Assembly: GCA_033549365.1 (NCBI GenBank) | Contig: JAWSUF010000006.1 | Coordinates: 141,472 to 205,471, forward strand | Direction of reading: 5' to 3' | DNA length: 64,000 bases | Source of the DNA: Acidobacteriota bacterium | GTDB taxonomy: Bacteria; Acidobacteriota; Aminicenantia; Aminicenantales; Saccharicenantaceae | Shown: positions 4,942 to 18,516 of the stretch, piece after piece | Position numbering within the stretch: position 1 is the stretch's first letter | Layout: the number at the start of each line of letters is the position of its first letter | Program-made: the position numbers and the translations under genes | The notes under the pieces: generated by a model | What the model saw: the letters and a program-made list of their open reading frames with translations, nothing else | Told to the model about the DNA's origin: nothing | The model's database searches: none

Positions 4942-6336
4942 TCATTCGATCACTTCCCAGTAACCACCTTTGGCTGGACCGATGCGTCGAAGTAGGCCCT
5001 GGTCCTGCAATTTGCGGATATTTCTTTCGATGGAACGCTCGGTCACGCCAATTAAACGCGCCAGTTCCGGTATGGTTAAATTTTCCTCTTGCTTTAATAT
5101 ATCCAGAATTTTCCCCGACGTTTTCCCCGACGTTTTCCCCGACGTTTTCGGTGGTTTCGCGACCAGTGTAAGTTCTCCAACCGGTTTTCGATGCACCGTA
5201 GCGGTGAAACGGCAGCCGTCACGATCATCAGTAAAATCGATCTTCGGCCAGGCATCCAGTGCCCGTTGTATGCCCGAACCCAAACCATGATAAGGCAGCA
5301 GTCCCTTGGCCACATACGAAACCAGAATTGGATTGCGGATGTTCGAATTTCCGGCCAGTATCTTTTCCACCGTCAGATTGTCCGGCAGATGGCCGGGACT
5401 GACGATCTCGATGCGGTTGTCGAAAATAAACAGGCGAACCGATGCACTTACCAAATAGTCACGGTGTACCAAGGCGTTCACTAAAAGTTCCTCAAAAACG
5501 CTTTCCGGAATTTCGGGCAATCCGGGGGCGTTCACACCTCGGCCGGCCTGAATCTTGTGGAGATTTCGCATGACGAACGCAAGGGCATCGTCGAAAATTT
5601 TCTTGAGTGGGCCGACAAAATCTTCGGTATCCACATAGTCGGTGACATGAATCTTGTTGCCCGGATATCGGATGGCCTTGACCACGAACTGGGGTTTTAT
5701 CCATTCCGGGCGTTCGGCGAACATCAGCACCCCGGCCAGGTTCAGCATGCCCTCATCAGTTGCAAGATTCATGTTCTGCAGCAACCGTAACAACTCCGAA
5801 GGCTCCTCCGGGAATTTGCGCTTGTAGACATCGCGCAGAAAGTCTTGAAACCTAAGCTTGTCCAGAGCCTCCACCCCGGCCTTGGTGGGCAGTTCGTCGG
5901 CATGGAACTGGCCGGAGACCTGAAAAAGCCTGCGCAGTTCTTCTTTGGAATTCACCCGCCGTTTGTCCGCGCCCACCTTCAGCCAAATCACACCGTTTTT
6001 ATCGAAATAGGGCTTGTCGATCCCCTTGGGCATAGTGACCACAATCACCACTTTTCCGCGGCCCACAGAGACGTTTTCAGTTTGCGGAGAAATGGGGCTG
6101 CGCACATGTTGGCTGGCCGCGTTGCTGATCAACTGGTTTATCCGGCTGACCTCGGACCGGGAAATTCCTTCCAACTCGCCATTATCCCCAATACCGATCA
6201 GAATACGACCGCCCTCACAGTTGGCAAACGCCGCCATCTCCGCTGCAAGCGCATCCACATTGCGCACATCCGCCTTGAATTGGAGGCGGCTGTCTTCGCC
6301 ATGTGCGACAAGTTTTCGGAGGTTGGAGGTATTCAT
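4942..6336 (-). CDS. AlbA_2 (Schlafen-like) DNA-binding domain + HATPase_c_4-type ATPase + C-terminal winged-HTH protein ('divergent AAA / RecG-C-terminal-like putative regulator')
   Basis: N-terminus RLQFKADVRNVDALAAEMAAFANCEGGRILIGIGDNGELEGI is typical of the AlbA_2 (PF04326) family. The C-terminus LTIPELARLIGVTERSIERNIRKLQDQGLLRRIG is a wHTH. A (TSGK)3 linker is encoded by an in-frame 12-nt tandem repeat. Confidence 0.65.
   Translation of the reverse strand: MNTSNLRKLVAHGEDSRLQFKADVRNVDALAAEMAAFANCEGGRILIGIGDNGELEGISRSEVSRINQLISNAASQHVRSPISPQTENVSVGRGKVVIVVTMPKGIDKPYFDKNGVIWLKVGADKRRVNSKEELRRLFQVSGQFHADELPTKAGVEALDKLRFQDFLRDVYKRKFPEEPSELLRLLQNMNLATDEGMLNLAGVLMFAERPEWIKPQFVVKAIRYPGNKIHVTDYVDTEDFVGPLKKIFDDALAFVMRNLHKIQAGRGVNAPGLPEIPESVFEELLVNALVHRDYLVSASVRLFIFDNRIEIVSPGHLPDNLTVEKILAGNSNIRNPILVSYVAKGLLPYHGLGSGIQRALDAWPKIDFTDDRDGCRFTATVHRKPVGELTLVAKPPKTSGKTSGKTSGKILDILKQEENLTIPELARLIGVTERSIERNIRKLQDQGLLRRIGPAKGGYWEVIE
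5109..5144. repeat. Perfect 12-nt tandem repeat x3 (ttttccccgacg) inside the AlbA_2-ATPase CDS, encoding (SGKT)n on the minus strand
   Basis: ttttccccgacg|ttttccccgacg|ttttccccgacg followed by ttttcg. In-frame (12 nt), so copy-number change adds or removes 4 aa without a frameshift. Confidence 0.9.
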
Positions 6337-7919
6337 TAAATCGGCGCTCCAGCACCTCGCAGGATCGCGATGATTTCAGACTTTACTTTATTCGGGATCT
6401 CAGCAGCCTGAGAAATAAGCACATATTTAAATGTCGTGAGGTCAAACGGCACCGCTTCATTCCGTTTTTGCGGTTCAAAAAGAAAGATGAGCCGGTTTTT
6501 TTCGTGATGCTTGAGGGCGAAACCAGCCTCGACAAAAACATTGGGACGTTGACCGGTCAGGTCGCAAATGATGATATCGGACGATGCGATGGCTTCGTAC
6601 ATGCGGTGATGGATCGGAAACGCGCCGCCTTCTTCGGTGCCCATGTCGATCAACTCAAGATTGATTTTATGATCCCTTTCTATGGCCGACAGTGTTCCCT
6701 TGAGTTGCTGGAGGCGCAAGTTTGCCTTGTTAAAGGCGTTATGCTTTGCCTCTTGGGATGGATACCAGCGCGCGAGAAATACCCGTTTGGGTACCCGCTG
6801 TTGAGCGGCCTTGAAGGTTTCCAGAAGTTGTTTGGCTGGAGAAAGCGGATCAAGCAGGCTGGTAATTCCCTCTGCGCCAAGCCATAGGCCGATGCGATCC
6901 AACAAACCCACGGCGGCATTCACTCGTTCGTCGTGGGTATTCCCGGTGCTCTCACGCCAGACGCGGGCGGCCAATTCCAGAAAAGCGTAAGTCTGGCAGA
7001 GTGAGGGGTGCTGGAATGTTAACCGGGTCAATATGTCGGCCAGGGCCGCAAAAAGCTCATCGGCAAAGGTGGTCAGAGCTGCGCGGTTTTCTGTCATGGT
7101 CGGGTCCATTTGAACCAGATTTCGTGCCGCTTCCCATAGCGAAGTCAATGGACGAAAACCAAACCTTTGCCGGACCTGTTCAGGCAAGTTGTTCAAATGC
7201 CTGCAAAGCAGGCGGGTCAGGTGCAAGTCGGGGCTGTACGCGAACTCATTGTCCGGTGTCATGGCATGGGCCGGGTCCTGCCCCAGCAAAAGCCGCAATC
7301 CGTGTTCCGATTCAAGCGTTAGAGCGGTGCTGTTGATGGTGTGGAAGATCAACGATTCGGCGTAATCGTCAGCATCATTATCAGAGGGCCCCAACAAGAT
7401 AAGACAAAAGGGGGCTAAATACTTGGTGGGAACGATTTGATCTTCCTCAAGGGTTTCGGCCATTGCCAGCCGGTGATTGCCGTCGATACGGCGAACCATT
7501 TTTTGTTCCTTGACGGCCTCCAGATCGCTACGCTGAATCCTGATCTGTTGAACCCGTTGATGCTTGCCGGCAAATCGGCGACTGACGGCAATCAGCGCCC
7601 TCTCCCCGGTTCCAACACCGATAACTCTTTCTTGCTCGGTCACATTATTAAAAACACCACGAACGGACAGAATGATTTCCGGGATGAGCCGGTTGTCGCT
7701 TTGTTCAAGGTATTTCTTGATGTCCAGGGCATGCCTTTCGTTCAATTGGCGCTGGTGGCCGACTACCCGCCCCGCCTCGGCTCCTTCATTTAGCTCATAG
7801 GGAACCGAAATCGCCGCCAAATCCCGTAAATCGGCAAAACCTCGAATGATTTTGAATATACCCAATACCCCTTCAGCGAAGTAACCCTCGAATTCGATGG
7901 TTTGGCTGACTGTGGGCAT
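6336..7919 (-). CDS. Fusion protein: N-terminal ParB/Srx-fold (DGQHR/DndB-like; motif IDGNHRL) domain + C-terminal nucleoside 2-deoxyribosyltransferase/DNPH1-like (Ndt-like) Rossmann domain
   Basis: 527-aa ORF. Residues ~40-60 RVVGHQRQLNERHALDIKKYL and ~150 VRRIDGNHRLAMAE match the DGxHR box of ParB-like nuclease/NTPase domains (ParB DGHHR, DndB DGQHR). The C-terminal SDIIICDLTGQRPNVFVEAGFALKHHEKNRLIFL resembles the Ndt/DNPH1 catalytic-Glu segment (D.GT.FE.GyA.a.GK). Start overlaps the stop of the upstream gene by 1 nt. Confidence 0.6.
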   Translation of the reverse strand: MPTVSQTIEFEGYFAEGVLGIFKIIRGFADLRDLAAISVPYELNEGAEAGRVVGHQRQLNERHALDIKKYLEQSDNRLIPEIILSVRGVFNNVTEQERVIGVGTGERALIAVSRRFAGKHQRVQQIRIQRSDLEAVKEQKMVRRIDGNHRLAMAETLEEDQIVPTKYLAPFCLILLGPSDNDADDYAESLIFHTINSTALTLESEHGLRLLLGQDPAHAMTPDNEFAYSPDLHLTRLLCRHLNNLPEQVRQRFGFRPLTSLWEAARNLVQMDPTMTENRAALTTFADELFAALADILTRLTFQHPSLCQTYAFLELAARVWRESTGNTHDERVNAAVGLLDRIGLWLGAEGITSLLDPLSPAKQLLETFKAAQQRVPKRVFLARWYPSQEAKHNAFNKANLRLQQLKGTLSAIERDHKINLELIDMGTEEGGAFPIHHRMYEAIASSDIIICDLTGQRPNVFVEAGFALKHHEKNRLIFLFEPQKRNEAVPFDLTTFKYVLISQAAEIPNKVKSEIIAILRGAGAPI

Positions 7920-9284
7920 TTAAATATCCTCCACGGGCCGTGTACCAAGGAGCATTTGCTCGACCCCGCTCGTTGCTTTTCCCAATAGTTCTTTTGATGC
8001 AGCTCTTAGCGACGCTGCTTTCAGGCGTTCTTGCATTGTTTTTTTTATCAGTTTTTGCTGAACATTGAGATTTGGAAGTGGTAACTTAAGTGACTGGATT
8101 TCTGTGCTATTTATGTTCGCCTGACCAATGATCTGCCTACTAAGGGCATTAATCTGCAGGCGACCGATTGGACCGTTAATTGCAAAAGCAACAAAATGTG
8201 GATCAGCTTTTTCGGGATCTACTCGCAATCGAATAAGATACGAGGCGAAAATGTAGGTCTCTTTCTTGTCAAAAACAGCACATTTACCCACAAGCTCCTT
8301 GCTATTTGTCCTGTTGATAAGAATATCCCCGCTGATAAGCTTAAGACTTTCTTCGATAACTTTTGATACTTTCAGATGTTTCAAATTTGATATATCCAAA
8401 TCACCGTCAACAATGTTATTCATACGGATAACACAAACCCCTTCCCCATTTGAATTTGTTTTTTCGCTTGTCCCATATTGAACGAGATCAAGAATTGCCC
8501 CTAATTCGACAATGGGGAATTTACCTTTTGTGAGGTCCATAATTGTGCTTGCGGCTTGATTGTAGCTTACACTCCATCGATCAAAATCCTTCCATTGCCC
8601 AATAATTAATTTATCAGATTTCTGGTTTTTAGGCATAGAAAGGCCAAGTTCTTGAATGAAAATTCGCATGGATTCGTCTATGGTGGCTTTAGACTTATCT
8701 TCCAATTGGATAGCTTCTGCGACAGCCGATTCCCAATATGTCACTATCTTTTTCTGAACTGAAAGTGGTGGGATCGGTATCTTTAAGGTTTCAAGAAGCG
8801 GATAAGTCAAATTCATCCTTACAGAGCCAGCAGTTGCGGCGCGCAAGGTTTGATTAAAAAATGCAGACTTTAATATAAACCAAAAAACTTCGGGAAGAAC
8901 GACGGCCTTATCAACCGAAAAAACGACGTAAGCCGGACTTATGAATGCGCCATCATGTTCCTGTGGTACCCGACCTATTGATCCGACGTTTATACGGTAT
9001 GGGTTGTAGGCAAAGTCACCCGCACTGACCTTTTTGTAGGGTTGTTTGATGTCTTTTCCCTGTGCGTCATAAGCATGGAAAATTCCATTAGTGTTGTTCA
9101 CCCCAAGTATCTTAAAGGATTCTCGTGGTGAATCATAAGGACGTATTTTTTCGTTATGTTCAGTGACGAATTCGGCAAGAGACACCAAAGGGAACTTTGA
9201 TTTTATCTTCGTTAAAAAATATTTTACGTCCCAACGTTCTAAGTCAGTAAAGCTTATTATGCGGGGTGTGGCCATTCCCATCAC
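7920..9284 (-). CDS. hsdS: Type I restriction-modification specificity subunit HsdS (two target-recognition domains)
   Basis: 454 aa. Duplicated architecture with conserved HsdS segments (…IPIPPLSVQKKIVTYWESAV…, …LPLPNLNVQQKLIKK…, ILINRTNSKELVGKCAVFDKK). Markedly AT-rich relative to neighbours. ATGA-type overlap with hsdM. Confidence 0.85.
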   Translation of the reverse strand: MMGMATPRIISFTDLERWDVKYFLTKIKSKFPLVSLAEFVTEHNEKIRPYDSPRESFKILGVNNTNGIFHAYDAQGKDIKQPYKKVSAGDFAYNPYRINVGSIGRVPQEHDGAFISPAYVVFSVDKAVVLPEVFWFILKSAFFNQTLRAATAGSVRMNLTYPLLETLKIPIPPLSVQKKIVTYWESAVAEAIQLEDKSKATIDESMRIFIQELGLSMPKNQKSDKLIIGQWKDFDRWSVSYNQAASTIMDLTKGKFPIVELGAILDLVQYGTSEKTNSNGEGVCVIRMNNIVDGDLDISNLKHLKVSKVIEESLKLISGDILINRTNSKELVGKCAVFDKKETYIFASYLIRLRVDPEKADPHFVAFAINGPIGRLQINALSRQIIGQANINSTEIQSLKLPLPNLNVQQKLIKKTMQERLKAASLRAASKELLGKATSGVEQMLLGTRPVEDI

Positions 9285-11542
9285 TCAGATCCTCCAGCCC
9301 CGGCAAAAGCTTTGGGATCGAGCAAAAACTCCCGGAACCATTCCAGGCAGGTCTTTTCGATCCTTTTCGGTTGATTTGCATTTGGATAGAGCTCGTTCTG
9401 CCCTTCCTCACCGGTGGCGGATATACCGACCTTATCTGCCTCATACATAAAAATGGGATAATCAAAACGCTCTTTTAATAGCTGTCGAGATTCGGCGGCT
9501 TTCTTCCCCTCCATCTGCTTGAGGAAATCCTTAAGCTCCTTTTGTAGCAATTTACGGCTTTCGGCATCTTTTTTTTCCTTAGCGTTTGCAATGGCGCCCT
9601 CAAGTCGCTGGGTTTCCGCAGCGATCTCGTCAGCATATTTGGCTTCAATTTCCGCTATCGCAGCGACATAGGTCTTATCAAATCGCTCTTTTTGCTGATC
9701 TGAATATTTCTGCAAGAACAGCAGAGATGCCTTTACACTGGCTCCGGAAGAGATGAACGTCTCTTGCGGCAGACTGACCACGGCCTTAAGATAGGCTCGG
9801 TCTTCGACAAATTGCCGTACATAGGCCAGCGAAGGATTGTTATAGACCCCTTCGGGGAGAACGATGCCCATGCGTCCCCCGGGTTTGAGCAAGTCCAGGC
9901 ATCGTTCTACAAAAAGGATTTCGGTTTTTATCTTGGATTCATTACTCTTTGGCAGGTCGAACAGACTGGCAATGGGTTTATTGATGGCGGACTTTACCCG
10001 CGCCTGGGCTTCTTTATAAGGCTCGCCGAACTCACGCACATAGCGGCGCTCATCTGAATCCTTCACTGCAATGTCGGATTCAAGCACCTTGTCCGAGGGC
10101 TCCACGTTTGCGCCAAAAGGGGGATTGGTGAGGACAATATCGAAGCGGGTTTCAAAGATGCCGTTGACGTTTAGAAAGCCGTCATGATGATGGACCCCGC
10201 CATGACCATCACCGTGCATGATCATGTTCATTTTGCTGGTACGGGCCATGCGGTCGTTGGCATCCGTGCCGAAAATGCAGCGGTTGGCCAGATTCCAGAG
10301 GCGCGAGCCTTCGTTGGATTGATCTATGGTTTGCTGGATCTCATCAAATTTTTCCTGAAGCAATTTGGCCCGCTTGGTGTCTGTAAGGGACTTGTCCTTT
10401 TCAACCTTTGCCCGAAAATCGTTATACTGTCGGTCGGCATCGGCCAGGATTTTTTCACGCACGATCTCAAATACCCGAATCAGAAATCCGCCGGACCCGC
10501 TGGCCGGATCGCAGACCACCTCGCCCTCCTGGGGATCGATCATGTGCACCATGAACTCCACGATGGTTCGAGGAGTAAAAAACTGACCGATTTCTCCGCG
10601 AAAGGTACGCCCCAGAAAGCGTTCAAAAGCCACACCTTTGATATCCTCGCTGGTATCGGAAAGGTTGTATTTTTCAAGTTTGCGAACAATCTCTTCGCCC
10701 GTGGCCGGTTTCAGGTTGATCCGTTCATCATCGTCGAAGATTTTATCCGCGGAATAGGATTTCTTGGTTTCCTGGAATAACGTGTCCAACGGGTTTTCGG
10801 CAATCTGCCGATTGAGCACATCAACGGTAAAGAGGTTTTCCTTACTGCGGCGGGTAAGTAGTTTACGTTCCACATATACTTTTACGAAAAGGATCTTGGC
10901 GATTTCATCAAAGGCGGCGGCCGGGTCTTTTTTTTCCCGGTTGCGGATCACGTTGTGGCATTGGTGCAGCAAGTCGGCAAACTCTTTCTCTTTGAACACG
11001 CGCAATTTCGAGAACAACTCCTCGATTTCCTTGTCCGTGGCATCGACATGGGGGATGTTCTCGATTTCTTCTATGTAGCCGGGCATCCGGTCTTTCTTGA
11101 CACGCCAGTATTTGGTTTCCCGGGAATTGTGGGTGACGAAAAAAGGCGCATCGGTCATACGGGCATAGTGTTCTCCCTGAGAATAGTCCTGGGCCTTAAT
11201 GGTCACATTGTCCGATTTGCACTCTATAATGATAAACGGGGCTTTTTGAGCGGTTTTGTCCTGGGGGCTGCGCCATATCACAAAATCCGCCCGTGCCTGG
11301 GCGCTGCCGCGACCGGAGACATCCATCTCCTCTGAGATCTGGTCCAGGATGTAACCATATTCCTCGGTCAAAACGAGCAAGTATTCCTGACGAACGCGTT
11401 CTTCAGGGGTGAGCGGCAGCCATTTTCGTCGCACCGGGCTGAAGATCTGGCTGCCTTTGACTTGGATTTCATCCGCTTTTACATAATTTTTTTTGGCCAC
11501 GCATCGCTCCCCATATCGATCATAATTTGTCATTTTCGGCAT
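9281..11542 (-). CDS. hsdM: Type I RM N6-adenine DNA methyltransferase HsdM with N-terminal PD-(D/E)xK HSDR_N-type domain (753 aa)
   Basis: MTase motif I (VCDPASGSGGFLI) and motif IV (LTNPPFG). N-terminal ~170 aa (EERVRQEYLLVL…ADFVIWRS…APFIIIECK) matches the HsdR N-terminal PD-(D/E)xK nuclease-like domain with a D…E-x-K arrangement. Confidence 0.85.
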   Translation of the reverse strand: MPKMTNYDRYGERCVAKKNYVKADEIQVKGSQIFSPVRRKWLPLTPEERVRQEYLLVLTEEYGYILDQISEEMDVSGRGSAQARADFVIWRSPQDKTAQKAPFIIIECKSDNVTIKAQDYSQGEHYARMTDAPFFVTHNSRETKYWRVKKDRMPGYIEEIENIPHVDATDKEIEELFSKLRVFKEKEFADLLHQCHNVIRNREKKDPAAAFDEIAKILFVKVYVERKLLTRRSKENLFTVDVLNRQIAENPLDTLFQETKKSYSADKIFDDDERINLKPATGEEIVRKLEKYNLSDTSEDIKGVAFERFLGRTFRGEIGQFFTPRTIVEFMVHMIDPQEGEVVCDPASGSGGFLIRVFEIVREKILADADRQYNDFRAKVEKDKSLTDTKRAKLLQEKFDEIQQTIDQSNEGSRLWNLANRCIFGTDANDRMARTSKMNMIMHGDGHGGVHHHDGFLNVNGIFETRFDIVLTNPPFGANVEPSDKVLESDIAVKDSDERRYVREFGEPYKEAQARVKSAINKPIASLFDLPKSNESKIKTEILFVERCLDLLKPGGRMGIVLPEGVYNNPSLAYVRQFVEDRAYLKAVVSLPQETFISSGASVKASLLFLQKYSDQQKERFDKTYVAAIAEIEAKYADEIAAETQRLEGAIANAKEKKDAESRKLLQKELKDFLKQMEGKKAAESRQLLKERFDYPIFMYEADKVGISATGEEGQNELYPNANQPKRIEKTCLEWFREFLLDPKAFAGAGGSE

Positions 11543-12242
11543 AACTGAAATAGCTGGTTCCGCCGCCGATGATAATGTGATCCTGGAACACCAAATCCAA
11601 AAGCCCGGCGGCTTGCTTCAATTCCTGGGTCGTCTTGTCATCGGCGGGGGAAGGGCTCGGATGCCCAGAAGGATGGTTGTGCGCCACGACGAAGGCGCTG
11701 GCTGACACACGCAAGGCTTCTTCCATCACACGCCTTACATAGACAGTGGCTTGCGTTGGGATGCCCTCCGTAATGAGCCTTTCAGCAAGCATGCAATTCT
11801 GGCCATCCAGGAGGATGGATAGAAAGCATTCCTGGCGCTGACCTTCAAATCGTGGGCGAATGTAATCAACCACCGCCGCAGCATTGGTGAAATCCTTGGG
11901 TCGGGTTGATTGTCTTCGGACTCTTTTGCCAATTTCAATGGCGGCTTTCATTTGCGCCACCTTGGCGATACCCATTCCCGGGATGGCGAGAAGCTCCTCT
12001 ATGTGAGCGCGGTCGATACCGCTTATACCGTTAAACATAGACATCAACCGGCGGGCCAGATCTTCTGCCGATTGTCCCGCTTTACCAATGCGAAGCAAAA
12101 TCGCTAGAAGTTCCCCATCTGAGAGGCCTTCAGCACCTGAATGGAGGAGTTTCTCTCGTGGGCGTTCGGTCACAGGCCAATCCTTGATAGCTTGGCGTTT
12201 AGATTTATGTACCCCGTTTGATGTAGTTTGGCCCTTAACCAT
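11520..12242 (-). CDS. radC: RadC-like JAB/MPN (JAMM) domain protein
   Basis: 240 aa with an HhH-like N-terminus and the JAMM motif AFVVAHNHPSGHPSPSPADD. Overlaps the hsdM start by 23 nt. Confidence 0.8.
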   Translation of the reverse strand: MVKGQTTSNGVHKSKRQAIKDWPVTERPREKLLHSGAEGLSDGELLAILLRIGKAGQSAEDLARRLMSMFNGISGIDRAHIEELLAIPGMGIAKVAQMKAAIEIGKRVRRQSTRPKDFTNAAAVVDYIRPRFEGQRQECFLSILLDGQNCMLAERLITEGIPTQATVYVRRVMEEALRVSASAFVVAHNHPSGHPSPSPADDKTTQELKQAAGLLDLVFQDHIIIGGGTSYFSYAENDKL

Positions 12243-12465
12243 TTTCGCTCCCCGAAAGATCCAACGCTCCGTCCGTCTTCATTCTTTCACAGAACGCATC
12301 CAACTGCGCCTGGGCCAGTTTAGACGGCTTGGCCTGACCATTTTCCCAGCGATTAACCGTGGCATAGCTCACACCCAACTCGCGAGCCAAATCCTCCTGG
12401 CTAATGGCAAGCTGTCGGCGAACCTCCTTAACTAATGCCGGGTAATCCGGATGGATTGGTTTCAT
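12235..12465 (-). CDS. XRE-family helix-turn-helix transcriptional regulator
   Basis: LVKEVRRQLAISQEDLARELGVSYATVNRWENGQAKPS is a classic XRE HTH. ATG at 12463-12465 is preceded by AAGGA. The ORF-track TTG start at 12492 is less likely. 8-nt overlap with radC. Confidence 0.65.
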   Translation of the reverse strand: MKPIHPDYPALVKEVRRQLAISQEDLARELGVSYATVNRWENGQAKPSKLAQAQLDAFCERMKTDGALDLSGSENG

Positions 12466-12504
12466 CACATCATCCTTTAGAGCGATATCCAACGGTAATA
12501 ATGA

Positions 12505-12560: not shown

Positions 12561-12853
12561 TAAAGATAAATTCGGGCACCCAGATGCAACCGGGCTGTTA
12601 AACAAGACGACTCGAAAAACGGAGAACAGGAGAATTCAGCGTTCGTTTCAGGGTCCAAAAGCCGTCTTCGAACTCAAAAGGCCTCGACGTACATGAAAAA
12701 CCAGGCTTTCAGGAGAATGGAGAAGATGGCAGGGAATATCTACGAAGCTGCAACCCTTTGAAAATACAGATCATAGAACAACGAAGCCCCACATCATGGA
12801 TACAGGGCTTTATTCGTTAAGCAACCGGTTAGGAAATGGGTTGCATTCGTGGT

Positions 12854-13181
12854 TGGCTCCCCGGGCAGGACTCGAACCTGCAACCTATTGGTTACAAGGG
12901 CCCCGGAGTTTCCTCCGGGCTTGGACTATCTCTTCACCCGTCCCGCGTCGCCGCGGGCGAGGGTGTCGGGCGCTTCCCCCGGGTCGAAACCCGGAGTACG
13001 AGCCGAAGCTCTAGTCTCTGCACCTTCCCCGTCCCGAAGGGACGAGGCTTGGCTCAGGGTTGCCGTTCTCCGCACCCGGCGGAGGGCAGGGTTCCCTGAA
13101 TTCACCCGATTTTCCATCCGCGGTTTCCCGCGGACGCTGCCTTTTGACAGCCAACCGCTCTACCGATTGAGCTACCGGGGA
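12854..13181 (-). tRNA. tRNA-Asn (anticodon GUU) interrupted by a group I intron between nt 35 and 36
   Basis: Exon 1 (13181-13147): UCCCCGG-UA-GCUC-AAUCGGUA-GAGC-G-GUUGG-CUGU. Exon 2 (12894-12854): UAA-CCAAU-AGGUU-GCAGG-UUCGAGU-CCUGC-CCGGGGA-G-CCA. Spliced product has loop CUGUUAA (anticodon GUU), U1-A72 and G73 as in E. coli tRNA-Asn. Exon lengths 35+41=76. Confidence 0.8.
12895..13146 (-). ncRNA. Group I self-splicing intron (~252 nt) in the tRNA-Asn anticodon loop
   Basis: P1: exon GCUGU pairs with intron GCAGC, with a U·G wobble at the 5' splice site. Intron ends in G (omega-G) before UAACC. The core GAGCCAAGC…GAAGGUGCAGAGACUAGAGC closely resembles the Azoarcus tRNA-Ile intron (GAGCCAAGC…GAAGGUGUAGAGACUAGACGG). 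Confidence 0.75.
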
Positions 13182-13194
13182 GCAAGGGACAGGA

Positions 13195-13223
13195 AATATA
13201 ACATGAGTCGAGGCGATTTTCAA
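13195..13223 (-). promoter_or_regulatory. sigma70-type promoter for the intron-containing tRNA-Asn (TTGAAA-N17-TATATT)
   Basis: Minus strand: TTGAAA (rc of 13218-13223), 17-nt spacer, TATATT (rc of 13195-13200). -10 ends 13 nt upstream of tRNA position 1. Confidence 0.45.
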
Positions 13224-13336
13224 CAACGAAATGCGATGCGGTGAAGAAGTTCTCGGAGGCGGAAATTGCGAGGCGGTCATCGAAAAGTCAGCAGACAAAA
13301 AAACAGCAAGGCGTTTTCGACGTCGGCGGGAATGCC

Positions 13337-15351: not shown

Positions 15352-16488
15352 TCACATCTTCCCCATGGCGTCCCGTGGATTCGGACCGGATATTTTCTCC
15401 AGTTCCTTCATGAGCTCGCGGACACGCTGGTCTTCGAACGGCGGCGGAACGATGACGACCTCGACGAAAGCGTCGCCGCGCACCTTTTTTCCGGGAAGCG
15501 AGACCCCCTTGTTCCGAAGCCGAAATTTCTGCCCGGACCGGGTTCCCGGCGGAATTCGGATGGTTTCGGGTCCGTGGATGGTCGGCACCTCGATTTTGGA
15601 CCCCAGTGTGGCTTCGGGGACCGTGATCGGAACCCGGGCATGGATATGAGGGCCTTCGCGCCGAAAATAGGCATGGGGTGCGACCTCGATGGAAATATAG
15701 AGATCGCCCGCCGTTCCGCCCGAACCCGGTGCGGCATTCCCCTTTCCGGCGATTCGGACCCTTGATCCGGTATCGACGCCGGCCGGAATGCGGACGGTGA
15801 TATTTTCGGTTTTCTGATAAAGGGCGCGTCCGCCGCAGGAGGAACAAACCTCGCCCGCATCTCCGCCGCTCCCCCCACACTCCCGGCAGGGCGAGGAGAA
15901 TTTCATGAAGCCTTTCTGATGAACCGTGCGTCCCGATCCGCCGCAGGAGGAACAGGACGAATGCCGGCCTTTTCCCGCGACGCGTCCGGCACCGCCGCAG
16001 TCGGCACAGGCGGCCAGACGGGTGATCCGGATCCGGGTCTGGAGTCCGTGAATGGCATCTTCGAAGCCGACCTTCATCGCATACTGGAGATCTTCGCCCC
16101 GGACCGGACCGGGTGCGGTGCGTCCGAATCCCGCTCCACCTCCTGCGCCGCCGAAAAGGTTTTCGAAGATATCCCGCATGGAGGAGGACCCGTAATTCGA
16201 AAATTCGAAACCGTCAAAACCCGGAGCGCCTCCTCCCGAGGAGGCCCACTCCCCGGCTCCGGGCGGCGAGTCTCCGACCGTCCCGAACTGGTCGTACTGG
16301 GCCCTCTTTTTCTCGTCGCTCAAGACGGCGTAGGCTTCCTGGATGTCTTTGAATCGGGCCTCGGCGGCTTTATCCCCCGGATTGAGGTCGGGGTGATGTT
16401 TGCGGGCCAGCTTCCTGTAAGCCTTCTTGATCTCGGCCGCGGAGGCGCCGCGTTCGATGCCGAGGGTTTCGTAATAATCTTTCTTCAT
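15352..16488 (-). CDS. dnaJ: Molecular chaperone DnaJ
   Basis: J-domain ([36 protein letters not shown]), G/F-rich region, four CxxCxGxG zinc-finger repeats ([30 protein letters not shown]). Confidence 0.9.
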
Positions 16489-16561
16489 GGCCCGACCCGC
16501 ATTCCGGATTTCGACCGGAAATGAGTCCGGGACGGCGGCGTCCCGGACTCATTCCAGGATA

Positions 16562-18490
16562 TCAGTTCTTCGACTCGTCGTCGACCACTTCGGCGTCGAT
16601 GACATCGTCGTCGCCTCCCCCGGGCGGCGGGGTGTCGCCTCCGGGCCGGGCACCGGGTCCGCCCGCCTGAGGGCCGGCCTGTTGCTGGGCGGAGGCCTGC
16701 TGGTACATCATCTCGGTCAGTTTGTGCGAAGCCTTCTGCAGCGATTCCGTGGCGGCCTTGATCTTGTCCAGGTCTTCGGATTCGACGGCCTTTTTGGTTT
16801 TTTCAATTTCAGCCTCAAGATTGCGGGCCTCTTCCTCGGGAATCTTGTCGCGGTTTTCGCGGAGCAGTTTTTCGAGACCGTAGACAAGCTGGTCGGCCTG
16901 ATTGCGGGCGTCGATGACCTCGCGGCGTTTCTTGTCCTCGACGGCATGGGACTCGGCGTCCTTGACCATCCGGTCGATTTCGCCTTCTTCGAGACCGCTG
17001 TGTCCGGTGATGGTGATGGCCTGCTGTTTGCCCGTGCCCTGGTCCTTGGCCGAGACGTGGAGAATGCCGTTGGCGTCGATATCGAACGTGACCTCGATTT
17101 TGGGAACGCCCCGCGGCGCAGGCGGAATGCCGTCGAGGTGGAATCGGCCAAGGGTCCGGTTGTAGGAGGCCATTTCGCGCTCGCCCTGCAAAACGTGAAT
17201 TTCGACGCTGGGCTGGCTGTCCGAGGCCGTGGAGTAGATCTCGGTTTTCTTGGTCGGGATGGTCGTGTTGCGCGGAATCATTTTTGTAAACACGCCGCCC
17301 AAGGTTTCAATCCCCAGGGTGAGCGGGGTGACATCGAGAAGCAGGACATCCTTGACGTCGCCCGAAAGGACGGCGCCCTGGATGGCCGCGCCGACGGCCA
17401 CGACCTCGTCGGGATTGACACCCTTGTGAGGTTCCCGGCCGAAGATCTCCTTGACGATCTGCTGTATGCGGGGCGCCCGGGTTTGACCGCCGACGAGGAT
17501 GACCTCATGAATGTCTTCGGCCTTGAGGCCGGCATCGGCCAGAGCCTGACGGCAGGGAGCCACGGATTTCTGAACGATGGGCTCCATGAGATCCTCGAGT
17601 TTGGCCCGGGTCAGTTTCATCAACAGGTGCTTGGGACCGGAGGCATCGGCCGTGATGAAAGGCAGGTTGACCTCGGTCTCCATAAGGGATGAGAGTTCGG
17701 TCTTGGCCTTCTCGGCCGCCTCTTTGAGTCTCTGCAGGGCCATTTTGTCTTTGGTCAGGTCGATGCCCGATTCCTTGCGGAACTCGTTGACCAGCCAGTC
17801 CTGAACGACCTGGTCGATATCGTCGCCGCCGAGGTGAGTATCGCCGTTCGTCGATTTGACTTCGACCACACCTTCCCCGACTTCCAGGATGGAAATGTCG
17901 AAAGTGCCGCCGCCGAAATCATAGACGGCGATGATCTGATCCTTCTTCTTGTCCATGCCGTAGGCCAGAGCCGCGGCCGTGGGTTCGTTGATGATCCGAA
18001 CGACATCGAGGCCGGCGATCTTCCCGGCGTCTTTCGTGGCCTTGCGCTGACTGTCGTTGAAATAGGCCGGAACGGTAATGACGGCTTTTTCGATTTTTTC
18101 TCCGAGATACTCCTCAGCCGCCTTTTTCAGCTTCTGCAAAATGTAAGCGGAAATCTCCGGCGGGGCGTATTTCTTGCCGAGGGCCTCGACACGGACATCG
18201 TCGTTTTCGGCCGCGCCGACCTTAAACGGAACCTGGCTCTTTTCCTTGGATACTTCTTCATAGCGCCGCCCCATGAACCTCTTGATGGAATAAATGGTGT
18301 TTTCGGGGTTGGTGACCCGTTGTCTTTTGGCCACCTGTCCGACAAGGATTTCTCCTTTTTGGGTGAAGGCCACGACGGACGGCGTCGTCCGCCCGCCCTC
18401 TTCGTTCGGAATAACCGTGCCCTTGTCTCCTTCCATGATGGATACGACGGAGTTTGTCGTTCCCAAATCGATACCAATTATCTTTGTCAT
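16562..18490 (-). CDS. dnaK: Molecular chaperone DnaK (Hsp70)
   Basis: [15 protein letters not shown]…, DLGGGTFD, full Hsp70 architecture. Start taken at the second ATG (18488-18490), which is preceded by AGGAGG. Confidence 0.95.
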
Positions 18491-18516
18491 GATGCCTCCT
18501 AATTTAGTCAAATGAT

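Follow-up and report, generated by a model that had tools for sequence, protein, structure and literature searches.

Intron-split tRNA genes of bacteria were surveyed by Williams with tFind (bioRxiv 10.1101/2020.01.27.920355), and the number of bacterial tRNA kinds found to be split by introns was raised from 4 to 21. The seed alignment of this survey (bioRxiv 10.1101/2020.01.27.920355) contains Pam37.Asn.4Ug, in which position 4 corresponds to the 35/36 site of the tRNA; the class is named 'Asn.4Ug'. Nakagawa et al. (mSystems 2026) surveyed 4,934 complete genomes and recorded 28 introns at 35/36: 19 in Patescibacteria, three in Cyanobacteriota, three in Nitrospirota and a single intron in each of Bacillota_A, Bipolaricaulota and Pseudomonadota. 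Self-splicing at 35/36 was shown in vitro for the Patescibacteria introns, and changing the terminal G to C abolished exon ligation (Nakagawa et al., mSystems 2026). Table S5 of the same work lists 35/36 introns of tRNA-Asn(GTT) in a Bipolaricaulota genome (GCA_004102645.1) and a Nitrospirota genome (GCA_951812745.1). Neither Acidobacteriota nor Aminicenantes is named among the phyla with 35/36 insertions in this complete-genome survey, and the Acidobacteriota entries in the portion of Table S5 available to us are an Ile2 intron at 33/34 and a Leu intron at 34/35, both assigned to IC3 (Nakagawa et al. 2026).

We analyzed a split tRNA gene in a 64-kb stretch of DNA, which is referred to as the window. 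We are highly confident that this gene encodes tRNA-Asn(GUU) and that a self-splicing group I intron of 252 nt, without a protein gene, interrupts it between U35 and U36. Judged by its sequence, the intron is a member of the published and widespread 'Asn.4Ug' class (tRNA-Asn, 35/36): the host tRNA reads GUU, the insertion lies at 35/36 with U at position −1 and a terminal G, and the homology extends over the full length. A preliminary description of the window had proposed that the host tRNA or the insertion site might be new. This proposal has to be withdrawn, since the Asn 35/36 class was published in 2020, splicing at 35/36 was shown in 2026 and our own scan found at least 55 further Asn 35/36 introns in public genomes. 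Two aspects may be slightly new, the Aminicenantes-like host lineage and the two hairpins that make up the insertion between P7 and P3′; both are modest.

The split tRNA-Asn gene and its predicted splicing

The whole split gene comprises 328 nt on the minus strand (13181..12854). The exons, the intron and the candidate flanking signals are as follows.

13195..13223, minus strand: promoter-like site (TTGAAA, 17 nt, TG-TATATT), ending 14 nt upstream of tRNA position 1; a consensus match only, 10/12
13147..13181, minus strand: tRNA-Asn 5′ exon, positions 1–35, 35 nt, ending in ...GGCUGU with U35 at −1; from ARAGORN on the joined exons and the enumeration of splice positions
12895..13146, minus strand: group I intron of 252 nt, lacking an ORF and a homing endonuclease gene; from Rfam RF00028, helices, fold and covariation
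12854..12894, minus strand: tRNA-Asn 3′ exon, positions 36–76, 41 nt, with CCA encoded; from ARAGORN on the joined exons
12784..12810, minus strand: terminator-like hairpin with a T-rich tail, 44 nt past CCA; a consensus match only

The 5′ exon (UCCCCGGUAGCUCAAUCGGUAGAGCGGUUGGCUGU) and the 3′ exon (UAACCAAUAGGUUGCAGGUUCGAGUCCUGCCCGGGGAGCCA), when joined, are called by ARAGORN as tRNA-Asn(gtt) of 76 nt with a full cloverleaf and CCA. The joined tRNA shows the U1–A72 pair, G73 and the anticodon loop CUGUUAA. The U1–A72 pair and G73 presumably suit tRNA-Asn, as in E. coli tRNA-Asn. With the tRNA-Asn of the two published relatives, the spliced tRNA shares 90% (Nitrospirota) and 81% (Bipolaricaulota) identity. 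The preliminary description had read the locus as exons of 35 and 41 nt that form a canonical tRNA-Asn(GUU), with a U·G wobble in P1 at the 5′ splice site, a terminal omega-G and a group I intron at 35/36, and this reading is borne out in each part. Eight cut positions in the anticodon loop were listed, and 35/36 is the sole register that combines U at −1 with a terminal G. U35 lies opposite G in the P1 helix GCUGU/GCAGC, and the terminal G is found at 12895. The intron scores 75 bits with RF00028, for which the gathering score is 50 (E=3.3e-17, model positions 1–253), and this is the sole Rfam match within the 64-kb window. With regard to the flanking signals, one terminator-like hairpin was found and 1.7 are expected in shuffles, a count no higher than that of shuffled sequence.

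A splicing pathway can be proposed for this gene. The precursor would probably be transcribed from its own promoter-like site, and the intron would fold into P1 to P9, with the extra helices P7.1 and P7.2 between P7 and P3′. Pairing of the guide sequence GCAGC with exon G31–U35 would give P1, in which the U35·G wobble lies at the 5′ splice site. Free guanosine, held in P7, would then attack after U35, and P9.0 (AAG/CUU) would position the terminal G (12895) in the P7 site that had bound the guanosine. In the last step, the 3′-OH of U35 would attack after the terminal G, whereby U35 and U36 would be ligated and the anticodon GUU restored within CUGUUAA. We infer catalysis by the window RNA from conservation and from the published in vitro splicing of Patescibacteria 35/36 introns; by our analysis, the intron is almost certainly functional and self-splicing.

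Relatives and genomic context

One genome per bacterial or archaeal species was scanned with the pattern GGGTGAATTCRRGRRA-N60-90-GYAGAGACTA, which gave at least 120 loci. The listed loci were then classed by the intron mode of ARAGORN together with a test for U at −1 and a terminal G. Among the 120 loci listed, at least 55 are tRNA-Asn(GUU) introns at 35/36, of which 32 are unambiguous and 23 also fit Thr 33/34. About 22 of the 120 are tRNA-Phe introns at 33/34, and Met, Leu, Tyr and other host tRNAs are represented by a few each. Among these listed loci, the hosts of Asn introns, as judged from the titles of their records, include Cyanobacteria (Microcoleus, Tychonema and Phormidium), Nitrospira and Nitrospirales, Aminicenantes, Candidatus Saccharicenans, Pyrinomonadaceae, Binatia and Rokubacteria. 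Planctomycetes, Omnitrophota, Ignavibacteriota, Bacteroidota, Elusimicrobia, Margulisiibacteriota, Berkelbacteria and several proteobacterial groups are also included. The closest of the loci listed (L066) is 82.7% identical to the window gene over all 328 nt, followed by an Aminicenantes locus (L074) with 82.4% and a Candidatus Saccharicenans locus (L115) with 81.3%.

On the strand of the tRNA, the window carries dnaK and dnaJ, then genes for a MerR-family regulator, a sigma-70-family factor and an AAA ATPase, and finally the tRNA gene itself. An identical gene order flanks the intron in L013, L074, L027, L115 and several other loci, and the DnaK identity to the loci sharing this order is 85–86%. 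The order dnaK–dnaJ–merR–sigma factor–AAA ATPase–split tRNA-Asn recurs in metagenome-assembled Aminicenantes genomes. Because this order is common to the Aminicenantes loci, the window is assigned to an Aminicenantes-like organism, and the split tRNA-Asn gene looks vertically inherited in the Aminicenantes lineage. Downstream of the tRNA, the relatives have no genes in common with the window. An island integrated at the tRNA was also considered and is unsupported: no repeat of the tRNA 3′ end was found in the window with up to three mismatches.

Intron fold, covariation and alternative readings

The helices of the intron were drawn by hand with Williams' seed alignment as the guide, and two alignments were used to evaluate them. 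Alignment A1 consists of 46 non-redundant Asn introns (the window intron and 45 others) onto which the window structure was projected, and alignment A2 consists of the 14 sequences of the window's own subtype. The elements are listed here in the order of transcription.

13136..13151, minus strand: P1, formed by exon GCUGU (13151–13147), loop CAAAAG and guide GCAGC (13140–13136), with U35·G at the splice site; U·G in 46/46 homologues
13116..13135, minus strand: P2 hairpin with a GAAA loop; 8/8 pairs changed on both sides in A1
13103..13109, minus strand: P3 5′ strand UCGGGUG, partner 12972–12966; 100% of cells paired, 2 compensatory pairs
13054..13099, minus strand: P4-P5-P5a, with P4 at 13099–13094/13059–13054, P5 at 13088–13085/13064–13061 and P5a at 13084–13079/13073–13068; from drawing, alignment and fold
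13022..13053, minus strand: P6 (GCC/GGU) and P6a (CCUCGUCCC/GGGACGGGG); P6 C-G replaced with G-C in 20/46, P6a compensatory in 9/9 pairs
13012..13018, minus strand: P7 5′ strand G-A-GACUA with a bulged A, partner 12928–12923, the guanosine-binding helix; 6/6 pairs unchanged in 46/46
13000..13011, minus strand: P7.1 hairpin GAGC-UUCG-GCUC; 100% paired, 3/4 compensatory in the 14-sequence subtype alignment
12977..12996, minus strand: P7.2 hairpin CUCCGGGU-UUCG-ACCCGGGG; 96% paired, 4/6 compensatory in the 14-sequence subtype alignment
12966..12972, minus strand: P3 3′ strand CGCCCGA; from the alignment of 46
12935..12965, minus strand: P8 and P8a; P8 97.8% paired, 4/5 compensatory
12923..12928, minus strand: P7 3′ strand UAGUCC; from the alignment of 46
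12920..12922, minus strand: J7/9 AAG, the 5′ strand of P9.0, with partner CUU (12898–12896) adjoining the terminal G; first two pairs in 46/46
12902..12919, minus strand: P9 hairpin with a GAAA loop; 94% paired, 7/7 compensatory
12895, minus strand: terminal G (omega-G), the last nucleotide of the intron; from the enumeration of splice positions and P9.0

An unguided fold recovers P2, P3, P4, P5, P6a, P7.1, P7.2, P8 and P9. The minimum energy is −132.6 kcal/mol, compared with −108.3 ± 5.1 for shuffles (z=−4.78), and none of 200 shuffles folds as well as the intron. The projected structure is also retained across the homologues. In A1, standard pairs occupy 82.3% of the cells, compared with 36–43% when the partners are slid by 1–3 columns and 67.9% after shuffling of the partners. 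Both sides have changed in 59 of the 84 pairs, and the observed value is reached by 0 of 500 shuffles on any of five measures. Covariation is heavy in P2, P6a, P8 and P9 and lesser in P3, P4 and P6. P1 including its U·G, all six pairs of P7 and the bulged A of P7 are invariant in A1; thus, covariation neither supports nor contradicts the structure of these two helices. The guide sequence GCAGC occurs in every A1 sequence.

The insertion between P7 and P3′ takes two forms. In most members it is one hairpin with a conserved UGAGGA...CCAAUAA motif, and in the window and 13 of the 46 aligned sequences it consists of two short hairpins joined by GUAC. In A2, 92.6% of the cells are paired, and P7.1 is formed by GAGC/GCUC, UUCC/GGAA, GACC/GGUC, GGGC/GCCC or UCCC/GGGA. 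At the 5′ side of the intron, P1 of the window has only 5 bp, as G30 faces G after the guide sequence, whereas it can be extended to 6 bp in most relatives. The P1 loop CAAAAG gives at most one P10 pair with the 3′ exon UAAC of the window, and no convincing conserved pairing of the P1 loop with the 3′ exon was found across the Asn 35/36 relatives. Relatives such as L074 and L050 begin with GUUA, which could pair with the 3′ exon as P10.

The splice sites might lie elsewhere in the loop, in which case the product would be tRNA-Thr(UGU) with an intron at 33/34 or tRNA-Asp(GUC) with an intron at 37/38. Automated calls point in this direction: ARAGORN in intron mode calls the window locus tRNA-Asp(gtc) i(38,237), Thr 33/34 is a frequent tFind or ARAGORN call for the relatives, 23 of 55 members give U at −1 and a terminal G in both the Thr 33/34 and the Asn 35/36 register, and Nakagawa et al. 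(mSystems 2026) record such tRNA miscalls too. In the window, however, an intron at 33/34 would end in U, and at 37/38 A stands at both positions. The P1 wobble sits on U35 in 46/46 sequences, and the tRNA-Asn with which the spliced product shares 90% identity was named by Nakagawa et al. via BLAST against intron-less genes. P9.0 bears on the other splice site. Its first two pairs hold in all 46 sequences and covary, the first as AU in 35, GC in 10 and GU in 1, and the second as AU in 21, CG in 14, GC in 9, UA in 1 and UG in 1. Since P9.0 ends directly before the terminal G (12895) and covaries among the relatives, the 3′ splice site is fixed on structural grounds, and P9.0 settles the 23 members that fit both registers as Asn 35/36 and not Thr 33/34. 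We give next to no weight to a shifted register in the window. A decayed, non-splicing relic in a tRNA-Asn pseudogene, with another intron-less copy serving translation, would be compatible with the 5-bp P1 and the near absence of P10 in the window, and decay does occur among Asn 35/36 introns, as one of them (L104) is without the P3′/P8 segment. This explanation is nevertheless very improbable. All columns without variation in the 46 sequences, among them the U·G, the whole of P7 and the terminal G, are kept in the window intron; its differences from the 81–83% identical relatives are compensatory in the helices and not disruptive; several Aminicenantes genomes have the locus in an unchanged genomic position; and the exons form a perfect cloverleaf with CCA.

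For the functional tRNA-Asn intron at 35/36, which we prefer, the subgroup has to be considered separately. The preliminary description had noted an Azoarcus-like core and called the intron IC3-type. GNRA loops cap P2 and P9 of the Azoarcus intron, like those of the window intron. A profile of 11 IC3-type seeds scores 61 bits on the window (nhmmer), and the core was correctly recognized: GAGCCAAGC and GAAGGUGCAGAGACUAGA are one base off the Azoarcus row (Aol6.Ile2.5Ug) of Williams' seed alignment. These near-identical core stretches would be expected if the intron were a true IC3 intron, a near kin of the Azoarcus tRNA-Ile intron that had moved to a new tRNA, but we consider this unlikely. Instead of being directly followed by P3′, as in IC3, P7 of the window intron is followed by two covarying hairpins (13011–13000 and 12996–12977; an insert of ~40 nt), and the IC3 seeds have nothing there. 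Extra helices P7.1 and P7.2 between P7 and P3′, such as the window intron possesses, reportedly mark subgroup IA in the scheme of Michel and Westhof. In general terms, P2, P7.1 and P7.2 are named among the elements by which the classes are defined (PMC3984707). P3 and J3/4 (UCGGGUG-AAU) also fit the insertion-bearing seeds (Asn.4Ug, Phe.2Ug and Lys.2Ug) and not IC3 (GUC-AAA). The profile of insertion-bearing seeds scores 82 bits with Asn sequences and 25 without them, compared with the 61 of the IC3-seed profile (nhmmer), so that the two labels are not distinguished by sequence profiles alone. The window intron has 69% identity to the Bipolaricaulota relative and 62% to the Nitrospirota relative, both assigned to IA1 by the best-scoring subgroup covariance model (Nakagawa et al. 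2026), versus 56% to the Azoarcus intron, and 25 of the 28 introns at 35/36 were classed as IA (Nakagawa et al. 2026). The label 'IC3-type' is doubtful and only partly right: the core and the GNRA loops are Azoarcus-like, and the presence of P7.1/P7.2 and the IA1 class of the published relatives speak against it. It is conceivable, although we lean towards the contrary, that the two-hairpin (GUAC) form represents an undescribed Asn 35/36 subtype, which would combine an IC3-like core and GNRA loops with IA-style P7.1/P7.2, be inherited vertically at a fixed Aminicenantes locus and perhaps interrupt the sole tRNA-Asn gene. If the sole tRNA-Asn gene were interrupted, self-splicing would be essential for the cell.

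Annotation and comparison with described introns

With default settings, ARAGORN found no tRNA anywhere in the 64-kb window, and its intron mode called the window gene tRNA-Asp with wrong boundaries. Rfam places the 5′ end of the intron 85 nt, and its 3′ end 7 nt, away from the positions determined here. The value of the present result lies in annotation: the gene escapes default tRNA finders or is misnamed by them, and the Rfam boundaries are wrong. A genome annotated by such tools would appear to be without tRNA-Asn, and its completeness estimate would be lowered. The covariation of P9.0 provides a structure-based rule to separate Asn 35/36 from Thr 33/34, which published tools often misread. 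The window intron itself would add one more host lineage (Aminicenantes-like) to an already widespread class and raises no new question.

The class representative Pam37.Asn.4Ug resembles the window intron in many features. Both interrupt tRNA-Asn GUU at loop position 4 (35/36) with U at −1 and a terminal G. The guide GCAGC and the P3/J3/4/P4 motif GGGUGAAUUCARGGAA are common to the two introns, and each has an insertion between P7 and P3′. In Pam37, however, the insertion is one long hairpin (UGAGGA...CCAAUAA), whereas the window intron has two short hairpins joined by GUAC, and the identity between the two introns is 53%. The Bipolaricaulota intron (GCA_004102645.1; 258 nt) and the Nitrospirota intron (GCA_951812745.1; 283 nt) also lie at 35/36 of tRNA-Asn and are close in length to the 252 nt of the window intron, with identities of 69% and 62%, respectively; unlike the window intron, both have a single-hairpin insertion, and they come from another phylum. 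The Azoarcus tRNA-Ile(CAU) intron is also small and without an ORF, has GAAA loops on P2 and P9 and shares a near-identical P6/J6/7/P7 core (GAGCCAAGC ... GAAGGUGyAGAGACUAGA). In contrast to the window intron, it interrupts tRNA-Ile at 36/37, does not possess P7.1/P7.2 and has another P3 and J3/4, with an identity of 56%. [quoted passage not shown] They belong to another phylum, and some carry homing endonuclease genes, which the window intron does not. Precise excision was observed experimentally for these Patescibacteria introns (Nakagawa et al. 2026), while that of the window intron is predicted from its sequence.

Splice register and automated calls

The splice register was examined in A1, an alignment of 46 non-redundant tRNA-Asn introns inserted at position 35/36, that of the window included. 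P9.0, the pairing of nucleotides after P7 with those just before the terminal G, lies in the window and in the alignment as follows.

12922-12921 with 12897-12896, minus strand: P9.0 (A1 columns 472-473 with 499-500)

Its two base pairs are kept in all 46 aligned sequences, where five pair types occur, and this conservation provides a structural rule that favours Asn 35/36 over Thr 33/34. Published tools often mistake the choice between these two registers.

The intron boundaries and the tRNA identity were also compared with automated calls. Rfam gives the following match.

12902-13231, minus strand: covariance-model match to group I intron (Rfam RF00028)

This match misplaces both intron limits relative to the true start (13146) and the terminal G (12895). 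The 5′ end overshoots the start by 85 nt, reaching the 5′ exon and also the promoter-like region (13195..13223, minus strand), since the P1 of the model was set there, and the 3′ end falls 7 nt short of the terminal G. With default settings, ARAGORN called no tRNA gene across window positions 1-64000; in intron mode, it called the gene within 12800-13250 (minus strand) a tRNA-Asp(gtc) with a 237-nt intron at position 38, a call that is wrong in both identity and boundaries.

Variant members and doubtful record labels

Two relatives depart from the common structure. In the Margulisiibacteriota tRNA-Asn (L035:7154-7411, plus strand), the A at position 31 faces an invariant C in the guide sequence, the sole P1 mismatch among the 46 sequences. 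The tRNA-Asn intron of a metagenome-assembled Bacteroidetes genome (L104:1907-2167, minus strand) lacks the entire segment from P3′ to P8, which reflects either decay of the intron or faulty assembly.

The labels of other relatives call for care. A 35/36 intron of the Nitrospira-like type (L095:315-596, minus strand) lies in a tRNA-Asn on a contig titled as a Klebsiella pneumoniae metagenome-assembled genome, and this contig was probably binned into the wrong genome. The 'uncultured Eubacteriales' labels of L003, L020, L050, L066 and L097 look unreliable, because these records carry the window gene order (dnaK-dnaJ-merR-sigma factor-AAA ATPase-tRNA-Asn) that also occurs in Aminicenantes genomes.

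Genes flanking the tRNA

On the dnaK side, a plus-strand ORF (16487-17692) matches Pfam NAD-GH (PF10712, E = 2e-81); dnaK (16562-18511, minus strand; HSP70, E = 3e-264) occupies the other strand there, and the ORF is most likely a spurious antisense one. The opposite flank carries the following stretch.

4942-12492, minus strand: run of defence-type genes immediately downstream of the tRNA 3′ end

The run comprises an HTH protein, RadC, a fusion of an N6-methylase with an HsdR N-terminal domain, an HsdS-like specificity subunit, an unknown 527-aa protein and a Schlafen/AlbA_2 protein with an HTH domain. None of the genes common to the window and its relatives falls in this stretch, and the GC content dips to 0.43 at 8-10 kb, compared with about 0.59 elsewhere. 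The stretch may be an island adjoining the tRNA, although a search allowing up to 3 mismatches gave no repeat of the tRNA 3′ end in the window.
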